A stretch of DNA of 64,000 bases, taken from positions 55,612 to 119,611 of the forward strand of contig PRCZ01000001.1 of NCBI GenBank assembly GCA_009903405.1, read 5' to 3'. The notes beneath the pieces were generated by a model. The model was not told where the DNA came from and searched no databases. It saw only the letters and a list, made by a program, of their open reading frames with translations. Positions 8,451-36,294 of the stretch are shown here, one piece after another. The translations under genes and the position numbers were made by a program. The DNA comes from Candidatus Methanophaga sp. AG-394-G06 (GTDB lineage Archaea; Halobacteriota; Syntropharchaeia; Alkanophagales; Methanospirareceae). The stretch's first letter is position 1. Each line of letters begins with the position of its first letter.

Positions 8451-11400
8451 TTACAGCTCCTGAAGAATGCGAAAGCCGAGGTCGATGTAGCGGACGCGGG
8501 GGTCGCGGCGGTCACGAAGAGCAGATCGGCACTCCACTGTGTCGCTGAGCCAGCCACCGCCGCGACCGATCCGGTCGGCCCCATCGGGAGGCCCTTCTGG
8601 GTTGCTGTCAGGACTATTTGCATAATAGTTATCATCATACCAGTCAGAACACCATTCCCAGACATTGCCGGCCATATCAAAACATTCATATAGACTTTTC
8701 CCTTTTGGGAATATACCTACGGGACTGGTACGAAGTAATCTTGACTCATCGGTATTGCACAAATTCTTATCAAAGTCTTCGCCCCAAGGATACTTAAAAC
8801 CTTTTGTCCCACGGGCTGTTTTTTCCCACTCGGTTTCTGTCGGCAGACGATACTGATGTCCCGTTCTTTCACTTAACCAATTAGCATATGCTTCCGCTTC
8901 ATACCAGCTTATACCAACCACAGGGAAATTGGGACCATTCCATTTTCGGTCATGCCAGTATCCAGGTTTGGAAATCTTGTTTTCTTCACGCCACAGCCAT
9001 CCTTCTTCTGACCACATATCTTTCCTAGCCTTACCGTAACCACCGTCATCAACGAATTCTTTAAATTCGTCATTTGTTACCGGATACTTGCCGATCCAGA
9101 AATCGTCAAGATAAATTTCACGTTGTGGTTTTTCATTAGAATATGCATCTGCATCATCCTCTCCACTTCCCCGTATGAACTTGCCACCTTTTACAAGAAC
9201 CATATTATCCTTTTTAATACGCAGGTCGCCCAGTGTGCCGATGATTTCGCCTGCCTCGAATCGCTCTTCCAGACTGGCATTAGACTCAATCAATTTATAC
9301 AGTTTATTACGTGCCAGAGTCACAACTTCATCATCCCTTTTGGAAGGCTGGAAATCGCGCAGTGCCCTCGAACCGAGAAGCCAGAGCCGTCGTTTGATTT
9401 TTTCATCTTCTTGTTTTGTGTTTAAAATCGCCTCTACTACGTCGTTACTCCTCTTTCGCATCTCAAGATTCAAGAAACCGGTATATAGGAGAATCGTTTC
9501 CGCCCACCAGTCATTCTCAACAAAATCTGTATAGTCAATATCCATATAAACGATCTGCTTTGCCGCCATAAATTCCTGAAATGTTAGATGTGTAAACTCT
9601 ATTTCACCGCCACTAAGCAGGTTAAATAACCCGCAGTTGGGTTCGAATTCGTCAAACAGATGCTTTATACGCCTTTGGTAAACATTCACCTGCTCATCTT
9701 CCTTTTGAACGGAAATTATCTTCAATATATCTAACCCATCACCTACTTCAAAGGTCTTGAGATTCTTATTCTGCATATCAAAAGCTAAAAGCATGAGAAA
9801 CTCCCGAACCTCACTCACTTTATCGGGTTCCGCAGGGTCGTGGAAACGCCGCCACAATAGATTCTCTACTATGCGGTCGTAGAGGTCAGCTCGCTGTCCC
9901 GGAATACGTCCACCTGCCAGGTAGAGCACGCACACCGCGGCTAACAGCAGTGGGTTCTGAGTGAAAACAGATACGTGTTCATGAAACACTATATCTGAGA
10001 TCATATCTTCTGCAGTCATATCTGCAAGTCCAGTGGCTTTGCCTGAGACCGCTCTGAACCATTTCCTTATGAATTCGTTTATCTTTTGATCATCCAGATA
10101 TTCGATTTCACAAATGTATTTCCCAAACCGTTCATTAGGTCTACCGGCAATACCATGTGGTCTCCCGGTAATCAAAAAACGGTTCTTTTTGTTCTCGAAT
10201 TGGAAGTCCGCGATGAGTTCGACAAGGTCATCACGAATTTCCTCCGGGATCTCGTCTAGACCATCGAACATGAGCAAGGCCCTGTTATGTTGAAGGAAAT
10301 TGGATATAACCGCCAAGTCTAGGGGGCATTTGCTTTTTTCAAGGTATGCTTCCAATAGCGGTTCAAAAGTGATTCTCGCTCCAGATTTCTTCAATTCTTC
10401 GCGGTAAACGAGCCATAGGTCTTTTAGAAATACTATCACCGGGAGGTAGTCCCTGAGGGCGTTCTGACACGAGCCCTCGATTATTGTATTAGCGAGATGT
10501 TTTATCAACGTTGTCTTACCCATGCCAGCCTTGCCACGCAGAAGAATGCAATTTACCCGCCCTAGAAGCGCCTCGATGTCTATTGTTGCGGGCTCTTTCA
10601 AATCCGCTTCTCCTTCAAGCTCGTCTTTCTGTTCCAATCGTGATTTTTCTTCATGATCCTTACTCATTCGCTCCATTTCCGCTTTATAGAAAGGGTTGGC
10701 CGTTTCAAGAGGAATATAGACCTCGACTAGTTGAACAGGAAGTACTTCTCCTTTCTTTGCTAACTGATCATAAGAAATAGTCGAGTGGAAATCTCGTACC
10801 CAGTCCTTGTATTCCGGCGGGATTTTTTGGGATGGTTCTATTTGAGGACCCTGAGGGAACTCAAAGGTATTAAGATCGAAGTATTCCTTCCCCTTCTGCA
10901 CTTTCCAGCATTCCCCATCCGGGACGAATTCATTCCGCCTATCATCCAGAATATAAGGCCAGACCCTCACAGCCACACCTTTTTCCTGGAACTCGACACG
11001 AACGAACTGAAAACCTATCCGCCCATTTCTATTATCTGTGTAAGATGCATTAGCCCCGAGGCAAATATAAGAATTTGAGGGGACTCTAAGCACAAATGCC
11101 TTATCGGCATGGATATGTCCATGAAGTACTAATCCACAGTTCTTGGATAATTCCACATGAGATTTGCCAAAATCTTGCTCATTAAACCAATCGAAAGGGT
11201 GATGCGTCAAAAGTATTTTGTTCTGAATTGTTGACATATATATAGCATTCATCACCTGTGGAAAACCGAGGGTTATATTAAATCTAACCCTATCAGTTTC
11301 TGAAGCCCAGCAACTGTTGAGACCTAAGAAAGAGACGTTCTTATCCTTAAAGTTCTTGACCCAAAAGTAGTCGTCTTCTGATCTGTAAAGATCGGGATTT

Positions 11401-11822
11401 AACTCTTGCACAAATTGCCGAAATGGCTTAAATTTGACATTGATATTGCTCTTTCTTTCCTCTTCATCTTCAAGAAAAGCATCAGTTTGCTGTTTCTTGA
11501 CAATATCGTGAAGCGAAAAATATTTCGATACATTATCTCTATCCACATCGTGATTGCCGGGGACGACAAGGAAGGTTGTTTTTTCTGGTAATACTAATTT
11601 AAGGTCGGCAAAGAAACTTTTTGCTTCTTCGTATTCTTTTCCCGAAAACGCAATGTCGCCTGTAACTGCAACGAAATCGAGATCTAAATTATTCTTGCCT
11701 ATATGCTCATTTATTTTAGCATGCATTTTTGCTCTTACATCTTTTCGAAAGGTTTTGTTTTCGTCGTCTTTGTCCCTTTTAAAATGGATGTCGGACAGAT
11801 GCAGTATCTCGATCTTGCTCAT
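8451..11822 (-). CDS. STAND-class NTPase fusion: metallophosphoesterase - NACHT-type P-loop - helical repeats - FGE/SUMF1-like domain
   Basis: MPE motifs LHLSDIHF, GDIAFSG, VPGNHD, THHP, LHGHIH. Walker A GKAGMGKTT (nt 10512-10535), Walker B LLMFDGLDE. C-terminal GKYPVTNDEF, WYEAEAYANW, RLPTETEWE, GNVWEWCSDWY, RGGGW, LGFR. Confidence 0.85.
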   Translation of the reverse strand: MSKIEILHLSDIHFKRDKDDENKTFRKDVRAKMHAKINEHIGKNNLDLDFVAVTGDIAFSGKEYEEAKSFFADLKLVLPEKTTFLVVPGNHDVDRDNVSKYFSLHDIVKKQQTDAFLEDEEERKSNINVKFKPFRQFVQELNPDLYRSEDDYFWVKNFKDKNVSFLGLNSCWASETDRVRFNITLGFPQVMNAIYMSTIQNKILLTHHPFDWFNEQDFGKSHVELSKNCGLVLHGHIHADKAFVLRVPSNSYICLGANASYTDNRNGRIGFQFVRVEFQEKGVAVRVWPYILDDRRNEFVPDGECWKVQKGKEYFDLNTFEFPQGPQIEPSQKIPPEYKDWVRDFHSTISYDQLAKKGEVLPVQLVEVYIPLETANPFYKAEMERMSKDHEEKSRLEQKDELEGEADLKEPATIDIEALLGRVNCILLRGKAGMGKTTLIKHLANTIIEGSCQNALRDYLPVIVFLKDLWLVYREELKKSGARITFEPLLEAYLEKSKCPLDLAVISNFLQHNRALLMFDGLDEIPEEIRDDLVELIADFQFENKKNRFLITGRPHGIAGRPNERFGKYICEIEYLDDQKINEFIRKWFRAVSGKATGLADMTAEDMISDIVFHEHVSVFTQNPLLLAAVCVLYLAGGRIPGQRADLYDRIVENLLWRRFHDPAEPDKVSEVREFLMLLAFDMQNKNLKTFEVGDGLDILKIISVQKEDEQVNVYQRRIKHLFDEFEPNCGLFNLLSGGEIEFTHLTFQEFMAAKQIVYMDIDYTDFVENDWWAETILLYTGFLNLEMRKRSNDVVEAILNTKQEDEKIKRRLWLLGSRALRDFQPSKRDDEVVTLARNKLYKLIESNASLEERFEAGEIIGTLGDLRIKKDNMVLVKGGKFIRGSGEDDADAYSNEKPQREIYLDDFWIGKYPVTNDEFKEFVDDGGYGKARKDMWSEEGWLWREENKISKPGYWHDRKWNGPNFPVVGISWYEAEAYANWLSERTGHQYRLPTETEWEKTARGTKGFKYPWGEDFDKNLCNTDESRLLRTSPVGIFPKGKSLYECFDMAGNVWEWCSDWYDDNYYANSPDSNPEGPPDGADRIGRGGGWLSDTVECRSALRDRRDPRVRYIDLGFRILQEL

Positions 11823-27946: not shown

Positions 27947-28882
27947 ATGGCGACTATAACCGGAAAAGTGCTTCGAATACTAGCTTTTAGCTCTGCTGAT
28001 GAAACGAAAGAAGTCGTTGATCTCATAATAGCCGATGAATACGATTACACGCGGGTATCATTATGGGATGACAAAGCCGAACTTGTGCGCCGTGGCGAGC
28101 TAAAAGCAGGCAATGTGTTAAGAATAGAGAACGCTTCTGAAGCTAGGGACGAGAAGAGAGCAAATGCAGGTAAAAACGCGCGAATTGCTAAACTTGCTAC
28201 GGACATCCGTGCGTTAAGTCATGCGAAATCATCGAACCTTACCGTACTCGCAGTTGCGAGACCAGAGAAGGGACAAGTCTGCATCGCGGGCATAGACGAA
28301 AACGGAGAATGGATAAGACCACAAGGCGTTTATGAGTCTGACGTTTTCAGTTCGGGAAACGAAAAATTCAAAACACTCGGCATCTCGAAAGTATTTGTTG
28401 ATAGGTGGAGAGGTAGACATCCACGAAAAGAGGATCGTTTTTTTGTCTTTTGTGACGGTCCGGCACGTGAATTAAACGCAGAAAAGAGGCGTGAATTCTT
28501 GGTACGTAATGCTGACGAGTCCGTAGATGCAGTATTTAAAAGAGGCAGGAGTTTGGGATTGATAAAGCCACGCATATTGCAAGTTTATGAAGAGCGAAAG
28601 AAGAAGAAGGGCGGGAAGAGTCATGAGCTATACATCCGTTTCAACTTCAAAGACGCTTCCGGCAGAGTATACCGAAGATGGTCATGCAGATGCAGTGACT
28701 TTTACAATACCTGGAACGAACTAAAGAGGACGCATCGCTGGACTTATGGGTGGCGAATGCTCAGATATTTGAGGAAGAATGACACTTATCTTGCTATTGG
28801 GCTTACGTATACAGATTACGGCACTAACCGGCTGGAATATGGCGCGTATCCTATGATCGTTGGTGTGCATGTATTAGCGTAA
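27947..28882 (+). CDS. Orphan OB-fold protein: RPA-type OB + C-terminal dual-OB-like domain
   Basis: N-terminal ITGKVLRI...VDLIIADEYDYTRVSLWDDKAELV..GNVLRIENA (RPA-like OB). C-terminal part begins LTVLAVARPEKGQVCIAGIDENGEWIRP. AT-rich flanks. Confidence 0.6.
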   Translation: MATITGKVLRILAFSSADETKEVVDLIIADEYDYTRVSLWDDKAELVRRGELKAGNVLRIENASEARDEKRANAGKNARIAKLATDIRALSHAKSSNLTVLAVARPEKGQVCIAGIDENGEWIRPQGVYESDVFSSGNEKFKTLGISKVFVDRWRGRHPRKEDRFFVFCDGPARELNAEKRREFLVRNADESVDAVFKRGRSLGLIKPRILQVYEERKKKKGGKSHELYIRFNFKDASGRVYRRWSCRCSDFYNTWNELKRTHRWTYGWRMLRYLRKNDTYLAIGLTYTDYGTNRLEYGAYPMIVGVHVLA

Positions 28883-30005: not shown

Positions 30006-30259
30006 GTCTTTGGGTTCCTGCTTTTTTAGCCTTTACTGAAGAAGGATTAGGAAAAGAAAGTATTTATTATATAACTTGACTTTCGCCATTATATAAATTA
30101 AAGTATTATTTGACCGCACCATTTTTTCCCTCACCGTCTTTCAATTTCCCATAGGTGACATTTTAGGTATTCTATGGACTGTGGTATAAGATAGCTAACG
30201 TAACTTCATACTGTTGATTGGGCACTTTCGATTAGCTTTATCTCTTCTGCTATCTGATG

Positions 30260-30333
30260 TTTTTGATTTTGAATTGGAACGGTCTATGTTCCTTAAATGT
30301 GCATACAACTTCTGGACGATTTCATACGCAAAG
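30260..30333 (+). pseudogene. 74-bp relic copy of an internal segment of the downstream Type IIG gene
   Basis: tttttgattttgaattggaacggtctatgttccttaaaTgtgcatacaacttctggaCGatttcAtacgcaaag compared with 31669-31742: 70/74 identical and same reading frame (FDFELERSMFLK...). Confidence 0.8.
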
Positions 30334-30460
30334 CTTTGATATTATCTTTATGAAAATGCATGTTCAATCCTGCAGGCATTTCCTTTTACTGTTATTCGAC
30401 TCTACTTGCATCACTACGAACGCTTAAAATATTTATGGGTGAAGAAACAAGATAGATTAG

Positions 30461-31051
30461 ATGAAAATGGATTATTCATTCTCTTCAGAAGGCGTATTGA
30501 AGAAGGTTCTTGGATATGGGTACCAAATAGAGCCCGCAGCTTTAAACATGCTCGAAGCTCTGGGCGATGAAAAAGTCATTGATGTCTTAGACTCATTCAC
30601 CGATAAGTTCCCGGACACGATTGTCATTGAGGGCAAACAAATAGAAGCGATTCTTGAAAAGACACCATCCAAAGAAGCTGCGGAAACGAATAAATTCGCG
30701 CTACGCGGTAAAATAACGCAGATTTACGATGGTAGTGGGCTTATTCAGCGTTGTCCTAAGTGCAACAGATGGATAATCGATGACTTTTGCATGGTTCACA
30801 GCGATGTAGAAGGAATCTGGGATTTGAGAATCAAAGCTCGATTTGATACTGGAACTGGGAGACGCACCCTGATATTCAAGAAGGACATAACAGAGAAAAG
30901 TGGGGGTATCACACTGGAAGAGGCGAAGAAGCTGGGCGAAGCGGCAACGCTGGCAAGAATAAAAGAAGCTATGGTCAATAGGAATTTTAAAGTCGCAGGC
31001 ATAGAACTAAGTGGTGGAAATTTTCTTGTAAAGGATATTAGCGAAGTATAA
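30461..31051 (+). CDS. RPA-like single OB-fold protein with embedded zinc knuckle
   Basis: FALRGKITQIYDGSGLIQRCPKCNRWIIDDFCMVHSDVEGIWDLRIKARFDTGTG, the archaeal RPA OB/Zn signature (C-x2-C-x8-C-x2-H, nt 30752-30799). Its stop is 1 nt before the next ATG. Confidence 0.7.
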   Translation: MKMDYSFSSEGVLKKVLGYGYQIEPAALNMLEALGDEKVIDVLDSFTDKFPDTIVIEGKQIEAILEKTPSKEAAETNKFALRGKITQIYDGSGLIQRCPKCNRWIIDDFCMVHSDVEGIWDLRIKARFDTGTGRRTLIFKKDITEKSGGITLEEAKKLGEAATLARIKEAMVNRNFKVAGIELSGGNFLVKDISEV

Positions 31052-31052
31052 A

Positions 31053-34000
31053 ATGGCGGACATCAAAAAAATTCAAACAATCTTTAAAAAGCTTTACGGG
31101 ATAATAGAAAGCGCTAAGGATATTTCAGAAGAGGATTTACGAGTCGAATTTGTTAATAGCGGTATTCTCAAAGAGCTCGGTTACAAGGGAGAGTTAGAAG
31201 ACATAAGATTTGAAAAAGGTATAAAAGGTAAAAGAAGCGACCTACTTGCATTTGACGACTACAAAAACGTTAATTTCGTGGTGGAATTCAAGAAGGCGTT
31301 AGATTTAGAACAAGATTTTGTGCAACTCTGGGAACGATACGTAAAACCGTTAAAAGCGAGATATGGGGTGCTTACTGATGGCCAGGAACTTGTGATATAT
31401 GAACGGGTGAACACTAACAGTGAGCTAAAGATAAGATTAGACCTTAGCGAGGTTACCTTATCCCAGTGCGAAGAGATTTCTGCCTGGCTAAAAAAGCCTA
31501 AAATAGAACGAACGAAGATTAACGAAGTGCTCAGCTATTTCAAGCGGTTTGATGACCCAAAGGAAAGGGTAAATTTATCCACGGATATTTCACAGCAGTA
31601 TTTCTTTGACAGTTTCGAATTAAAAGGGGATTCCATCTTTGTGAACTTGGTTCAAAAGACGATTGGTCTTTTTGATTTTGAATTGGAACGGTCTATGTTC
31701 CTTAAAAGTGCATACAACTTCTGGAAAATTTCGTACGCAAAGAAGCCAGATAAAGTGCCTGAAAACTGGCGGAGGATAATGGATCATATCGGGCTTGAAA
31801 CGACCGAAGAGAATCTGTTAAAATTTATGTTCTGTTTGGAAAGTGCCTATTCTTTGTTCACACGGTTGATTCTGGCGAAAGCATGTGAGGATTACAAATT
31901 GCCATACGTTGAGTTTTCAAAATTCATTAAGACTGAAATTGAGAGGACATCTTACAGGGGCGACATTACGCTCTTAGCATGGGCAATAACCACGAAGAAT
32001 CTAATCGAGAGCATGAAGCAGAAACTTGTGAAATCCGTTTTCGAGGGCGATATATTCTACTGGTGGGAAGACAGTTATAGTGAATTGAAACCCGGTGCTG
32101 CTCTTTACAGTCCACAGTATGAGAAGCAAAAAGCTCGCTTTGGCGAAGCCCTTGCTGAGATCATATTAACGCTATACAAATTCGATTTTTCTGAGATTGT
32201 TGGTGACCCGCTCGGAACACTCTACCAGCACTATTTCGATAAGGAGACCAGAAAGGCACTTGGAGAATTTTATACGCCAAAAGAGGTGGTTGAGTACATA
32301 CTCGATGCTGTTGGCTATGAAGGGCGAGGTGTTATTGGCAAACGTTTATTAGACCCTGCATGTGGCTCAGGTACGTTTTTGGTAGAAGCGTTAAGGAGAT
32401 ACCTGAAAGCTTCAGAAGAAATAGCAGAGGAAAAAGGCTGGCCGGCGATTTTAAAAGAGCTCTGTGACGAATTCTGCATCGCGGGTTTCGACATTCATCC
32501 ATTTGCTACTTTCATGGCACAGATGCAGTTCATGCTCGTCTTGATTCCCGCATACAAGAAAGCGATGGATGAAGACCCACATTTTGTCTTGAACCGTCTG
32601 CCGATTTTCAGAACGGATTCTCTGGTTGACGAAACGAAAGGAGAAGCGATGAAAGTAACTATCGCGACTTTCGAGGATGGTATTCGATATATCGTAATTG
32701 ATACGAGCTTACCTGTTGAAGGCGGGAACCTGAAGATAAAGATGCCGTATTATAAAGACGTATTCGCAAAAACAGATTTGTTAAACGTTCAGGAATATTT
32801 TGCAGCACTTCAAGCGGTTTTTGACACTGTAAAAGAGTCGGCATGGCAGGAGAAATATGTAGTTGATAAAGAGAAGCTGGAACGGAATTTCAAGCTGTAT
32901 CTTGAAGATAAGGATTGGAATGGATTGGTATCTTTCTTTATGTCTTATGCGGAGCACTTCTTGCTGAAGTTCGAGGAACTCAAAGAGACTTTCGGTGACG
33001 GTAAGCTGATAAAGTCTGTCGAGGACTTGATGCTTGCTGCGATTCTGAAGAATTATGTGAAGTATGATTTTGTGGTTGGGAATCCGCCGTATGTGAGGGT
33101 GCAAATGCTAGATAAAAAGCAAAAAGAAGGGTATAAAAAGCTTTATGAAAGTGCTTTGGGCAAATTTGATATTTACACGCTATTTATTGAAAGAGGTATT
33201 AGTTGGCTGACAGATGGCGGAAAAATCGGATATATTGTATCAAATCAATTTATGGTTACGAATTATGGCGAAAAAATACGAAGAATAATTGTGGACAAAA
33301 CAAAAATAAATCAATTAGTAGATTTTGGTGATTCTGGAGTATTTGCAGACGTAACAAATTATCCCGCGATATTAGTTTCAGAAGCAATTAGTGACAGTAA
33401 AAACATAAAAAACCATAACATCAAGGTTGCCAAAGCATACTGGCCTAAAGAAAACTTACTCCGTGAAATAGAATCTAGACTTACTGAGCACTTGTTTTAC
33501 ACAAAACAATTTGAGATTTTTGAGTATCCTCAGTTAGAACTGAAGGATAAAACTTGGGACCTACTGGCACCTCAGGAAAAAAGTGTTTTTGATAAAATAG
33601 AAAGAAGTGGAGTGAAACTAAAAGAAATTACAGAGAGAATATTCCAAGGAATAAATACCGGGCATGATGAAGTATTTTTTGTTTTGACTTTAGGAACTGA
33701 TAGCGAAAAACAAATTAAAATTCGGCATATTAAGAAGGAAGAAGCGTATAACCTTGAAAAAAGTTTGTTGAAACCACTTCTTAAAGGTAAAGAAGTTCGA
33801 AGATATAGAATTGACTGGAGCGGACTATACGTCGTTTATCCACACAAAAAAGATAAAATAGGGGATAGAAGCGAAGCAATAGCAATACCAGAGGAAGAAA
33901 TGAAAAGAGAATATCCCATTGCGTACAATTATTTTAAACTTTTTGAATACGAACTAATGCAAAGAAAATATTTGATGGACAGTATTGAAAAAGGAAAAAG

Positions 34001-34829
34001 AGATGCATGGTACGAGATTTGGAATCCAAGGCTGCCTGAGCGTTTCGAAAAACTAAAGATTTTAACTCCGAACATGTCGAATAGGAATAATTTCACATTG
34101 GATGAGTTCGGTTATTATTTTACACGACCCGTTTATGGAATACTCCTCAGAGATCAATATGATAATAAGAAGACGTATCTTTATGTTTTAGGGATTTTAA
34201 ATTCAAACGTTTTGGGATTCTATTTCATGCATATTGCTACAATTAAAGCGGGTAAATATTTCGAGTATCGTGCTCAGTACCTCGAACGCCTCCCTATCTG
34301 CCTTCCCAAAACCAAATCCGAGCAAGACCTCGCAGACAAAATAACGAAGAAAGTGGAGCAAATCTTAGAAAAAGTAAAGCTTGAGCAGCAAATCGAGAAC
34401 TTCCCGGACGAATACCTTCAAGAATACCGTAGTAGTGGCGAGGAGTTTGAGTCCACAAACATCATTTTCAAATCAAACCACAAGGCGATTGAGCCCGTAA
34501 TAGAAGAAGACACCACCGGTAGAGGCTACAACATCGTTTTTGGCAAAAAAGAAAAGCCCGTTTTTGTTGATTCCGCTGCAAAAGCGGATTACGTTGTTAC
34601 TGCGCTAAAAGGAACGAGAGCAAAGAAAGACGAGAAGAAGCAGATTCTCATTCCAAAGAGCGATGCAATTGTAGAAGAGATTCTGAATAACTTGGAGAGC
34701 GATAAAGCACAGATAAAATCGCCTTCTGTTGCAGAACTCGAAGACGCAATAAACAAGCTTGTTTACACGTTGTACGGGTTAAACGAAAAGGATGTAGAGG
34801 TTATAGATGATTTTTTGAGGCGGTTTTAG
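31053..34829 (+). CDS. Type IIG-like restriction-modification fusion: N-terminal PD-(D/E)xK domain + gamma-class N6-adenine MTase + TaqI_C-like specificity region
   Basis: D63...E78-F-K80 (RSDLLAF...NFVVEFKK), GEFYTPKEVVEYILD, motif I LLDPACGSGTFLVEA (about nt 32351), motif IV VVGNPPYV (NPPY at nt 33081-33092), 1258 aa. Confidence 0.85.
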   Translation: MADIKKIQTIFKKLYGIIESAKDISEEDLRVEFVNSGILKELGYKGELEDIRFEKGIKGKRSDLLAFDDYKNVNFVVEFKKALDLEQDFVQLWERYVKPLKARYGVLTDGQELVIYERVNTNSELKIRLDLSEVTLSQCEEISAWLKKPKIERTKINEVLSYFKRFDDPKERVNLSTDISQQYFFDSFELKGDSIFVNLVQKTIGLFDFELERSMFLKSAYNFWKISYAKKPDKVPENWRRIMDHIGLETTEENLLKFMFCLESAYSLFTRLILAKACEDYKLPYVEFSKFIKTEIERTSYRGDITLLAWAITTKNLIESMKQKLVKSVFEGDIFYWWEDSYSELKPGAALYSPQYEKQKARFGEALAEIILTLYKFDFSEIVGDPLGTLYQHYFDKETRKALGEFYTPKEVVEYILDAVGYEGRGVIGKRLLDPACGSGTFLVEALRRYLKASEEIAEEKGWPAILKELCDEFCIAGFDIHPFATFMAQMQFMLVLIPAYKKAMDEDPHFVLNRLPIFRTDSLVDETKGEAMKVTIATFEDGIRYIVIDTSLPVEGGNLKIKMPYYKDVFAKTDLLNVQEYFAALQAVFDTVKESAWQEKYVVDKEKLERNFKLYLEDKDWNGLVSFFMSYAEHFLLKFEELKETFGDGKLIKSVEDLMLAAILKNYVKYDFVVGNPPYVRVQMLDKKQKEGYKKLYESALGKFDIYTLFIERGISWLTDGGKIGYIVSNQFMVTNYGEKIRRIIVDKTKINQLVDFGDSGVFADVTNYPAILVSEAISDSKNIKNHNIKVAKAYWPKENLLREIESRLTEHLFYTKQFEIFEYPQLELKDKTWDLLAPQEKSVFDKIERSGVKLKEITERIFQGINTGHDEVFFVLTLGTDSEKQIKIRHIKKEEAYNLEKSLLKPLLKGKEVRRYRIDWSGLYVVYPHKKDKIGDRSEAIAIPEEEMKREYPIAYNYFKLFEYELMQRKYLMDSIEKGKRDAWYEIWNPRLPERFEKLKILTPNMSNRNNFTLDEFGYYFTRPVYGILLRDQYDNKKTYLYVLGILNSNVLGFYFMHIATIKAGKYFEYRAQYLERLPICLPKTKSEQDLADKITKKVEQILEKVKLEQQIENFPDEYLQEYRSSGEEFESTNIIFKSNHKAIEPVIEEDTTGRGYNIVFGKKEKPVFVDSAAKADYVVTALKGTRAKKDEKKQILIPKSDAIVEEILNNLESDKAQIKSPSVAELEDAINKLVYTLYGLNEKDVEVIDDFLRRF

Positions 34830-34929
34830 CATTTGGTATCTGCTCGGTCAAGCCATAAAAATTGAGGGCACTCCAGTAAGCAACAGAATAAGGATTTAGC
34901 AGCAAAGAACCAATAAATAATGAATTCAT

Positions 34930-35145
34930 TTAACGTATACTTTCCCTTTCTGCACCCAGCGGGATGATCATATATTTCCCTTTTTCTATGCGTTCAATCC
35001 ATCCCTTCTTCTCCAGTCGTGAAAGAATTACCCATAACTCCTCTTTTTGGATATTTGTCGTACTTAAGACAGCCTCAATAGTGAAAACCCTTTTTTGCCA
35101 GTTCTTCAAGTATGCTGATTCTCAGTCTTATGCACGATCCTTAAC
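34930..35145 (-). pseudogene. Decayed AbiEi-like winged-helix gene (no start, frameshift)
   Basis: Minus strand reads ...RLRISILEELAKKGF / frameshift in an A/T run / TIEAVLSTTNIQKEELWVILSRLEKKGWIERIEKGKYMIIPLGAERESIR-stop. The L..L.KKG.I.R..KG.Y motif is typical of the AbiEi N-terminal domain. Confidence 0.45.
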
Positions 35146-35508: not shown

Positions 35509-36294
35509 TCACTTAACGTACAGTGTTCCTTTAGCCTTCTTCGCAGTCATTGCGAGATCGCCGCTGTATTTCTTGTATTCCGCACCGTCTATTGATTCCG
35601 TACCCTCCAACTTAAAAGAAGGCATCATATCCTGCACCGTACCCTTCACCGTTATCTCACCACTCGTCATATCCGCACCGGGCATAACCGCATCGCCCTC
35701 TATAACTATTTTACCGCCGTGCATGTTCAATCCGGCAAGCATTCTCGCATTTCCTTTTATCACTATCTCGCCACCACCCATGTACTGCCCGACACACTCA
35801 TCGGCATTGCCGCCAACCGTCACTTTTCCACCGGTCATACCAGTCATCTCGCCCCGATACATCGCGCAGAGGTTAGCAGCAGCATCTCCATCTATAATCA
35901 GTTCTCCACCGTGCATTTCACGACCAGCCCAGCAATCGGCATTACCCGTTACCGTTATTTTACCGCCGTTCATCATCGCACCGCAGTGCATATCCACATC
36001 ACCGTTAGCCTCTATCTCGCCTGCCTTCATACCATCGCCTATCCGCTTCACACGAGACAGATCGCCGTCCAGCACGAGCTTCACATCGTCCGCACTGCTA
36101 GCCGTCCCATCTACGCTCACATCGAACAGATCGCCCGTATTCTCTTCACGGTTGCCCCACCAGACCCGAACCGCCTTTATCTCCGCTTCCGTCTTGCCAA
36201 ACAATTTATCTGGAGTCAAGGAATCCACCTCTACCGGTATCTTCGCCACTCCGCTCGTAACTTCACTCTTTAACTTCAATTTTATCGTCTGCAT
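35509..36294 (-). CDS. fwdC: Formylmethanofuran dehydrogenase subunit C
   Basis: GXGXG beta-helix repeats (GGKITVTGNA, GGELIIDGDA, GGKVTVGGNA, GGEIVIKGNA, GGKIVIEGDA), 261 aa. Confidence 0.9.
   Translation of the reverse strand: MQTIKLKLKSEVTSGVAKIPVEVDSLTPDKLFGKTEAEIKAVRVWWGNREENTGDLFDVSVDGTASSADDVKLVLDGDLSRVKRIGDGMKAGEIEANGDVDMHCGAMMNGGKITVTGNADCWAGREMHGGELIIDGDAAANLCAMYRGEMTGMTGGKVTVGGNADECVGQYMGGGEIVIKGNARMLAGLNMHGGKIVIEGDAVMPGADMTSGEITVKGTVQDMMPSFKLEGTESIDGAEYKKYSGDLAMTAKKAKGTLYVK

Follow-up and report, generated by a model that had tools for sequence, protein, structure and literature searches.

A gene for a small zinc-ribbon OB protein almost always directly precedes a predicted Type IIG restriction-methylase gene in methane-oxidising archaea and relatives

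Layout of the locus

We analyzed a 64,000-nucleotide (nt) stretch of DNA from Candidatus Methanophaga sp. AG-394-G06 (GenBank contig PRCZ01000001.1; hereafter, the window), in which a gene encoding a 196-amino-acid (aa) protein with an OB domain directly precedes a gene predicted to encode a 1258-aa Type IIG restriction-modification (RM) enzyme (Table 1). A first-pass annotation of the window had described these two open reading frames (ORFs) as separated by 1 nt, and both ORFs and their spacing were confirmed from the sequence. The stop/start junction reads ...GTA TAA A ATG GCG..., with a lone base at position 31052 between the TAA of the OB gene (31049-31051) and the ATG of the enzyme gene (31053). 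In relatives, the enzyme start lies 1-46 nt after the OB stop (mostly 1-13 nt), or the two genes overlap; too little intergenic space is left to hold a separate promoter for the enzyme gene. Based on archaeal promoter architecture, the TATA-like box in front of the OB gene probably serves as the promoter of the module. Assembled contigs from cold-seep metatranscriptomes cover both genes, and two of them cross the junction (31025-31395 and 30911-31083), which fits a single transcript.

Table 1. Features of the OB gene and enzyme gene module. Positions refer to the window unless another locus is named.
Feature	Position	Strand	Basis or remark
Leader and likely promoter	30386..30460	+	TATA-like box TTAAAATATTTAT at 30424-30436, ~25-30 nt before the ATG; left edge of shared DNA
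Gene for the 196-aa protein (candidate accessory protein; DP1N-like domain and Zn-ribbon OB)	30461..31051	+	ORF; the second Met (30467) is the start in most homologs
Acidic four-helix N-domain (predicted), aa 9-67, pI 4.5	30485..30661	+	NCBIfam NF003118, AlphaFold (AF2), Foldseek
Basic OB fold with inserted Zn ribbon (predicted), aa 79-196, pI 9.1	30695..31048	+	NCBIfam RPA models, Foldseek; C98/C101/C110/H113 encoded at 30752-30799
Gene for the 1258-aa predicted Type IIG restriction-methylase fusion	31053..34829	+	ORF, Pfam, PADLOC; separate promoter not evident
PD-(D/E)xK nuclease domain, aa 26-123	31128..31421	+	Pfam HSDR_N_2, E 6.7e-7; D63/E78/K80 encoded at 31239-31292
Gamma-class N6-adenine methyltransferase domain	32220..33344	+	Pfam N6_Mtase, Eco57I
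Hypervariable segment, aa 681-1080 (methylase C-lobe and TaqI_C)	33093..34292	+	Low identity, foreign base composition
Conserved enzyme C-terminal region, aa 1081-1258	34293..34826	+	Right edge of shared module; homology ends at the stop (34829-34842) in most loci
79-nt relic of a second enzyme-gene copy (= aa 206-230), upstream of the OB gene	30255..30333	+	92% identity to 31664-31742; tblastn E 2e-8
24-nt fwdC-derived repeat	30357..30380	+	Twin at 35720-35743
AbiEi antitoxin relic	34828-35125	-	79% identical to the L002 protein over its aa 15-100
Loci with EVE gene, enzyme gene and DUF365 gene	L064:3552-8177; L073:33-4624		Enzyme-side look-up

Linkage between the two genes

The OB-side survey comprised 61 loci picked by similarity to the OB protein alone (5 genome loci and 56 metagenome loci, given here as L numbers). 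Its base was mainly metagenome contigs, many of them short, and counts of linkage cover the 55 loci with at least 60 nt of sequence after the OB stop. An enzyme homolog or relic begins 1-46 nt after the OB stop in 42 of these loci, with about 30 of the enzyme genes intact or reaching the contig end; an extra gene separates OB gene and enzyme gene in three further loci, and a distal relic of the enzyme C terminus was detected in one. Overall, 46/55 loci have the enzyme, or what is left of it, behind the OB gene, and no enzyme trace was found in the other nine. In methane-oxidising archaea and their relatives, the enzyme is thus almost always found directly behind the small gene.

The pair occurs in at least 12 upstream contexts, including cfbD, an fwdC fragment, Rpp30, MetE-like, RadB-like, Schlafen-AlbA_2, CPBP protease, SWIM protein, ribonucleotide reductase, and PCNA-PriL genes. 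The first-pass annotation had raised the case of an OB gene next to cfbD in relatives that lack the RM gene; cfbD is a neighbour only in the window and in L002, and L002, the only cfbD-syntenic relative, has the enzyme. Relatives whose OB proteins are ≥90% identical sit in three upstream contexts, and the DNA that they share extends from ~35-130 nt before the OB start to the enzyme stop codon. The left edges of blastn homology fall at 30386 in L001 and L008, at 30425 in L004 and L005, and at 30427 in L012, L013, L017, and L053. In L014, the fwdC fragment is 92% identical to that of the window, whereas the OB protein is only 70% identical. Across 23 loci, distances between OB proteins correlate with distances between enzyme N-terminal regions (Mantel r 0.73), and none of 2000 permutations reached this value.

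The reverse survey, from the enzyme side, consisted of 12 context look-ups in an enzyme family that spans 94% to 38% identity at constant length. A conserved OB gene upstream of enzyme homologs, which the first-pass annotation had suggested surveying, was found at 55% (L072) and 51% (L079) enzyme identity, where the OB domain overlaps the enzyme start. An OB neighbour therefore lies directly upstream of RM homologs down to 51% identity, contrary to the possibility that such homologs never have one. In these two within-clade look-ups (n=2), the enzyme did not occur without the OB. At 50% (L073) and 47% (L064) identity, the upstream slot is filled by a gene for an EVE-domain protein of 146-160 aa, and a DUF365 gene lies downstream. 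The EVE gene takes the identical position in this sister clade, which argues that the slot is functional. At 40-44% identity (Bathyarchaeota, Thermoplasmatota, a Spirochaete, and one more), a small upstream partner is absent. For eleven enzyme clusters (59-77% identity), the longest contig has the same length as that of an OB cluster, which softly suggests that enzyme and OB lie on the same contigs.

Domains of the small protein

The 196-aa protein has 728 relatives in a large protein collection, nearly all of them 194-205 aa long (typically 194-202 aa) and with a mean column identity of 73%. The whole stand-alone family forms one cluster at 50% identity. We used 23 diverse homologs to check the knuckle ligands and the N-domain. 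As the first-pass annotation had noted, the protein carries a zinc-knuckle OB resembling that of RPA: it contains the C98-x2-C101-x8-C110-x2-H113 knuckle, none of whose four ligands varies among the 23 homologs, and the block around the ligands, ITQIYDGSGLIQRCPKCNRWIID.FC.VHSDV.G.WDLRIKA, is invariant or nearly so.

Residues 79-185 match the C-terminal third of haloarchaeal RPA models in NCBIfam (E 9e-26), with scores below the cut-off (90.8 bits vs 447 for NF005554 and 87.6 vs 353 for NF005553). In the AlphaFold model (predicted local distance difference test score, 77), a four-helix N-domain (aa 9-65) is joined by a disordered linker to an OB fold, which includes a Zn ribbon as well as a helical insert. 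The best Foldseek matches of the OB domain in the PDB are the trimerisation core of P. abyssi Rpa1 (8c5y_A and 8aas_A; E ~6e-7, 23-24% identity) and human RPA70 DBD-C (1l1o and 8rk2); Teb1 OB-C and RMI1 come next. A sequence search of the OB protein against the PDB returned chance matches only. Neither Pfam nor PADLOC assigned the protein to a family, including antitoxin or anti-restriction families, and its predicted fold, a helical domain plus an OB, contains no helix-turn-helix (HTH) or known controller fold.

Based on these matches and the predicted structure, the OB domain is derived from RPA, yet the 196-aa protein is not an RPA. It has a single OB, its score against the RPA model NF005554 is far below the cut-off, and no Rpa2/Rpa3 or RPAP partner gene lies beside the OB gene; on these grounds, the gene does not encode an RPA paralog in the usual sense, which the first-pass annotation had raised as an alternative. 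Like archaeal Rpa1 and RPA70 DBD-C, which are its best fold and sequence matches, the protein has an OB that carries a helical insert and, between its first strands, a Zn ribbon. Unlike them, it lacks N-terminal DNA-binding OBs and has a DP1N-like N terminus in their place, and the downstream gene is a restriction enzyme. An ordinary RPA with three OBs and a partner gene, retrieved in two loci beyond the 61 of the survey (L062/L063), is 39% identical to the 196-aa protein in the OB domain.

The N-domain (aa 10-78 of the window protein) weakly matches the N terminus of the PolD small-subunit model (NF003118) in 23/23 members, with a best E-value of 6e-5 and scores far below the cut-off. When the N-domain was modelled alone, Foldseek matched it to the N-domain of POLE2 in the human replisome (7pfo_A), the N-domain of Pol epsilon subunit B (2v6z), the DP1N of P. 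horikoshii (2kxe; template modelling [TM] score 0.58/0.62), and AAA+ lids, with TM scores of 0.54-0.63. The guess of the first-pass annotation that this domain resembles DP1 is thereby supported with moderate confidence by sub-threshold profile matches and a predicted four-helix fold. The resemblance to DP1N and the N-domain of Pol epsilon subunit B lies in a small acidic four-helix domain; the difference is that the DP1 phosphodiesterase domain does not follow in the 196-aa protein.

The Type IIG enzyme and exchange of its recognition segment

The fusion of a PD-(D/E)xK nuclease, a gamma-class methyltransferase, and a TaqI_C-like region, first recognized from motifs, was borne out by database models. 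Besides HSDR_N_2 at the N terminus, Pfam identified N6_Mtase/Eco57I/MmeI_Mtase at aa 390-764 and TaqI_C at aa 907-1082 (E 3e-19), and two PADLOC REase_MTase_IIG models match the enzyme (E 1.3e-58 and 1.2e-54). The catalytic motifs were checked in 21 aligned homologs: D63, E78, and K80 are identical in all of them; motif I, DPACGSGTFL (aa 434), varies at the last residue only (L/I/V); and motif IV (aa 677) reads NPPY in 19 homologs and NPPW in two. A long insert separates motif I from NPPY. The solved structures nearest to the methylase are CamA, M.BseCI, and M.TaqI. By these matches, the protein is predicted to be a Type IIG enzyme that holds nuclease, methylase, and target recognition in one chain.

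Enzymes of the OB-linked clade share 62-94% identity over aa 1-680 and aa 1081-1258 but only 25-51% over aa 681-1080, no better than against outgroups. Based on blastn, nucleotide homology over aa 681-1080 is absent between most loci. The GC content of this segment is 0.337 and its GC content at third codon positions (GC3) is 0.29, far below the remainder of the gene and the genome (0.43); GC3 is 0.43-0.49 for the OB gene and for the other parts of the enzyme. The coverage by metatranscriptome and metagenome contigs falls over the same segment, which is consistent with many alleles in the population. Residues 681-1080 thus are an exchanged recognition module, as is usual for defence enzymes that experience diversifying selection but not for housekeeping methylases. 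The invariant catalytic residues, the swapped and compositionally foreign recognition segment, and the defence genes that lie adjacent in relatives together point to this defence character.

The enzyme resembles BREX PglX through partial hidden Markov model similarity over the methylase and recognition part. It differs from PglX in its score (121.8 bits vs a cut-off of 400) and in the absence of PglZ, BrxC, and BrxL nearby, its neighbours being cfbD, fwd genes, and the AbiEi relic. PglX is not known to have an N-terminal PD-(D/E)xK nuclease.

Two candidate points of contact on the enzyme were considered and dropped. The tail of the enzyme, ...IDDFLRRF, was considered as a PCNA-interacting-protein (PIP) box; it is equally conserved in homologs that have no partner and is therefore a general feature of the family. 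Docking through an insertion specific to enzymes of the OB clade was also considered; no such insertion of ≥5 aa was found, and only the first 40 aa are specific to the clade.

Primase fusions in Hydrothermarchaeota

Outside the 196-aa family, the nearest relatives of the OB domain are proteins of ~500-530 aa with a C-terminal OB (P0243, P0246, and P0248), and ordinary RPAs come next. All three are Hydrothermarchaeota primase large subunits (PF04104) that carry the Zn-OB at the C terminus, and about a dozen clusters at 90% identity are built in the same way. Unlike in the 196-aa protein, the OB in these proteins is fused covalently to PriL instead of to a DP1N-like domain. The gene order is PCNA-PriL::OB(-SprT-PriS) in L075-L079 and L057, and the Type IIG enzyme lies immediately behind PriL::OB in L057 and L079. 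Based on these domain assignments, the OB appears to be attached to the replisome in two ways, by the DP1N-like domain or by fusion to PriL, and the enzyme follows in both arrangements. The module adjoins replication genes in L057 and L072.

History of the module and associated defence genes

The 79-nt enzyme relic and the 24-nt fwdC repeat that lie upstream of the OB gene in the window are also present in L002. In L014, a 3' fragment of fwdC joins the OB leader exactly at the 24-nt repeat (L014:1040-1420), and fragments of a MetE-like gene lie downstream of the OB gene in L004 and L047. Taken together, the enzyme relic, the fwdC repeat, the L014 joint, and the MetE-like fragments indicate that the module evidently was duplicated and relocated by recombination, carrying pieces of its neighbours with it. 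When the window was searched by tblastn for another OB or enzyme copy, only the 79-nt relic was recovered, and a second OB copy that was considered after the MetE fragment in L004 was not found. A scan of viral contigs detected no relatives of the OB protein and thus gave no sign of a viral module.

The orphan OB genes in L004, L039, L040, and L042 derive from paired ones, and the orphan OB genes in L005, L037, and L047 are decaying. Behind the intact OB gene of L039, an in-frame deletion (L039:8589-8750) has left a mini-ORF of ~52 codons that consists of enzyme aa 1-42 plus the last ten residues.

In four other loci (L023:623-6016, L052, L045, and L038), the interior of the enzyme gene is replaced by genes for an XcyI-type restriction endonuclease, an N6/N4 methylase, a 306-aa protein, and an HD-CE protein; the flanks that remain are the first ~42 and the last ~27-82 codons of the enzyme gene. 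The gene found between OB gene and enzyme gene in L010 (6867-8219), L050 (1633-2260), and L051 (1617-2244) has no Pfam family and encodes an R-x4-H (HEPN-like) motif. It encodes 450 aa in L010, is broken in L050 and L051, and is fused to the MetE-like fragment in L047. An intact AbiEi/AbiEii pair follows the enzyme gene in L002 (14312-15864) and is also present in L046 and L061, whereas the window keeps a relic of AbiEi only.

Chromosomal setting and other genes in the window

The window is ordinary chromosomal DNA from a methane-metabolising archaeon; its genes encode SecY, eRF1, a class I aminoacyl-tRNA synthetase, FtsY, Tyw1, MoaB, CfbD, subunits of formylmethanofuran dehydrogenase, TyrRS, topoisomerase I, and Fae-Hps. 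L002, a contig of a metagenome-assembled genome of ANME-1 (anaerobic methanotrophic archaea, group 1), is syntenic with the window from Tyw1 through the enzyme at ~93-95% nucleotide identity, and DNA of the window is present in metagenomes from marine sediment and cold seeps, which points to an ANME-1 (Methanophagales) source.

A gene 1.6 kb from the OB gene (27947-28882, forward strand) encodes a second unusual OB protein. Its 311-aa product has an RPA-like OB fold at the N terminus (E down to 4e-7 against NCBIfam RPA models), resembles the Pfam Dual OB-containing domain (DuOB) weakly and below threshold, and gives faint matches to the PADLOC candidate systems PDC-M19B and PDC-M45A. This protein is 94% conserved in L002 and lies outside the OB-enzyme module in other loci; we found nothing relevant on "DuOB" in the literature. 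On the reverse strand, positions 8451-11822 encode a protein of 1122 aa in which a calcineurin-like phosphoesterase, a NACHT/STAND NTPase, and an FGE-sulfatase-like domain occur together; based on these domains, it may be a STAND protein of defence or signalling.

Discussion

We regard the pairing of OB protein and enzyme as very probably functional, because the two are linked, co-diverge, and move together and because the sister clade has a different partner in place of the OB protein. RM genes are often mobile, and bare adjacency in the window would be compatible with an RM cassette that happened to land behind an RPA paralog near cfbD. That account has a vanishingly small probability, because the pair recurs in 46/55 loci, in at least 12 contexts, and with two enzyme sub-clades, and because the two proteins co-diverge; moreover, cfbD adjoins the pair only in the window and L002. 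An accident of synteny is excluded for practical purposes.

In the reading that we prefer, the two genes form a Type IIG system in which the enzyme would restrict unmethylated foreign DNA and methylate the host. The small gene would be transcribed from its own promoter jointly with the enzyme gene, and translational coupling is probable. The small protein would be a dedicated accessory subunit assembled from two replication-derived modules, an acidic DP1N-like domain and a basic Zn-OB like RPA70 DBD-C; it would contact the enzyme, bind single-stranded DNA (ssDNA), and tie the enzyme to ssDNA at replication forks, with effects on methylation or cleavage. Its most likely purpose would be that new host DNA is methylated before cutting becomes possible, and it may also steer the nuclease to replicating invader DNA. 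Based on the domain identities and the PriL fusions, we give the general form of this proposal, an accessory adaptor linking the enzyme with ssDNA or the replisome, an even chance of being correct. In the sister clade, a reader of modified bases of the EVE type would serve an analogous job; EVE domains are regarded as such readers.

A narrower version of the adaptor proposal is suggested by DNA polymerase D: PolD docks by means of DP1N on the C-terminal domain of Gins51 in the CMG helicase, as described for the DP1N of T. kodakarensis (PMC9023282). By analogy, the DP1N-like domain would dock on Gins51 of CMG, the OB would hold ssDNA, and the enzyme would be carried along the fork for replication-coupled maintenance methylation; in Hydrothermarchaeota, the OB would simply be part of primase. 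We consider this narrower version unlikely.

Several observations weigh against the adaptor proposal. The DP1N-like assignment relies on sub-threshold sequence matches, the Foldseek E-values for the N-domain are weak (0.06-0.3), and a search of PDB sequences with the N-domain profile did not recover DP1 and gave chance matches only. RMI1 is among the fold matches of the OB, and OB folds of this class can be purely protein-protein modules. The RNA evidence consists of assembled metatranscriptome contigs, into which carry-over of DNA is possible. Other observations concern OB genes that do without the enzyme. No enzyme trace lies behind PriL::OB in L075-L077 (3/6 Hydrothermarchaeota loci), and L078 has only a 57-aa relic of the enzyme N terminus. 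After loss of the enzyme, the OB gene in L004, L039, and L040 is intact and under purifying selection, with ratios of nonsynonymous to synonymous substitution rates (dN/dS) of 0.15-0.28 in orphans and of 0.15-0.32 for orphan and paired genes together. Where the context is Thg1-M50-Pop5-Rpp30, OB identity (59-89%) simply follows that of the housekeeping neighbours, so the pair can also be inherited vertically for long periods, and the OB protein could act in replication independently of the enzyme.

What we see as the main rival is kept alive by the PriL::OB loci that lack the enzyme and by the orphan OB genes that are intact. In this rival, the OB protein serves the replisome in a housekeeping role, as an ssDNA-binding protein associated with GINS or primase. 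The enzyme gene would have lodged as a passenger for the long term at the 3' end of the OB gene, where it uses the OB promoter and a site that is hard to delete, with no interaction between the two proteins. This account would also fit the decay of the enzyme, or its replacement by other defence genes, while the OB stays (L023, L039, and L052), the host-like GC3 of the OB gene and the conserved enzyme parts, and the replication genes that adjoin the module in L057 and L072. However, the OB gene moves with promoter and enzyme between contexts in near-identical relatives, and in L014 the OB has diverged far more from that of the window than the adjoining fwdC fragment has. The single cluster at 50% identity is a narrower spread than expected of a core replication protein, the enzyme or its relic is kept in the great majority of loci, and an EVE protein occupies the same slot in the sister clade. 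On balance, we judge a mere passenger rather unlikely.

Alternatively, the OB protein might be a controller or antitoxin-like inhibitor that, much as C-proteins or restriction-alleviation factors do, delays or restrains cleavage by binding to the nuclease or to the transcript, in which case a link to replication is not needed. A small upstream gene that is co-transcribed, at a spacing of 1-13 nt or with overlap, would suit such a role, as would the tolerance of orphan OB genes alongside the two within-clade look-ups in which the enzyme always had its OB, and the protein-binding OBs, such as RMI1, among the fold relatives. The protein nevertheless has no HTH or known controller fold and no PADLOC or Pfam antitoxin or anti-restriction match, the fused enzyme already couples methylation with restriction, and a controller leaves the DP1N-like domain and the PriL fusions unexplained. 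We therefore hold a controller to be quite improbable.

The enzyme itself is of a known kind; what appears to be new is the conserved partner with OB and DP1N-like domains, the PriL-fused form, and the EVE alternative. Like Type IIG/IIL enzymes such as MmeI, RM.BpuSI, and the Eco57I family, it has an N-terminal PD-(D/E)xK nuclease, a gamma-class N6-adenine methylase, and a recognition domain in a single polypeptide. Those enzymes are described as acting solo or with extra methylases or specificity subunits, whereas here a conserved non-enzymatic OB protein stands in front; in a census of archaeal defence systems, Type IIG was counted as "a module alone" (PMC12988326). In the literature that was searchable, we found no description of an OB or RPA-like partner of Type IIG, of EVE with Type IIG, or of a PriL-OB fusion, and, on RM in ANME-1, a hotspot paper mentions variable adenine methylases only. 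The sister clade resembles the OB clade in having a homologous enzyme (47-50% identity) with a gene for a small nucleic-acid-binding protein immediately upstream, and it differs in that the partner is a PUA-like EVE domain and an extra DUF365 gene is present. The proposal of the first-pass annotation, an obligate ssDNA-binding partner as an undescribed variant, holds in part: the literature search turned up no such partner, and the survey makes the OB protein a conserved partner of a Type IIG clade, a partner that may be obligate and may bind ssDNA.

Type IIG enzymes are treated as self-contained, and a partner built from replication modules would be a new RM architecture and the first genomic hint of an archaeal defence enzyme coupled to ssDNA or the replisome. 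The well-delimited region of recognition exchange may be of use for engineering specificities. Because ANME archaea are uncultured, it is valuable to have hypotheses about their genes that are open to testing with recombinant proteins. MmeI-type enzymes modify only one strand (PMC2582602), and the OB-linked enzyme makes testable how newly replicated host DNA is protected by such one-strand modifiers. If the replisome-tethered form of the proposal is true, it would explain how single-chain, possibly one-strand-modifying enzymes spare freshly replicated host DNA, and it would amount to an archaeal maintenance methylation that is functionally like the PCNA/UHRF1-guided DNMT1 of eukaryotes.

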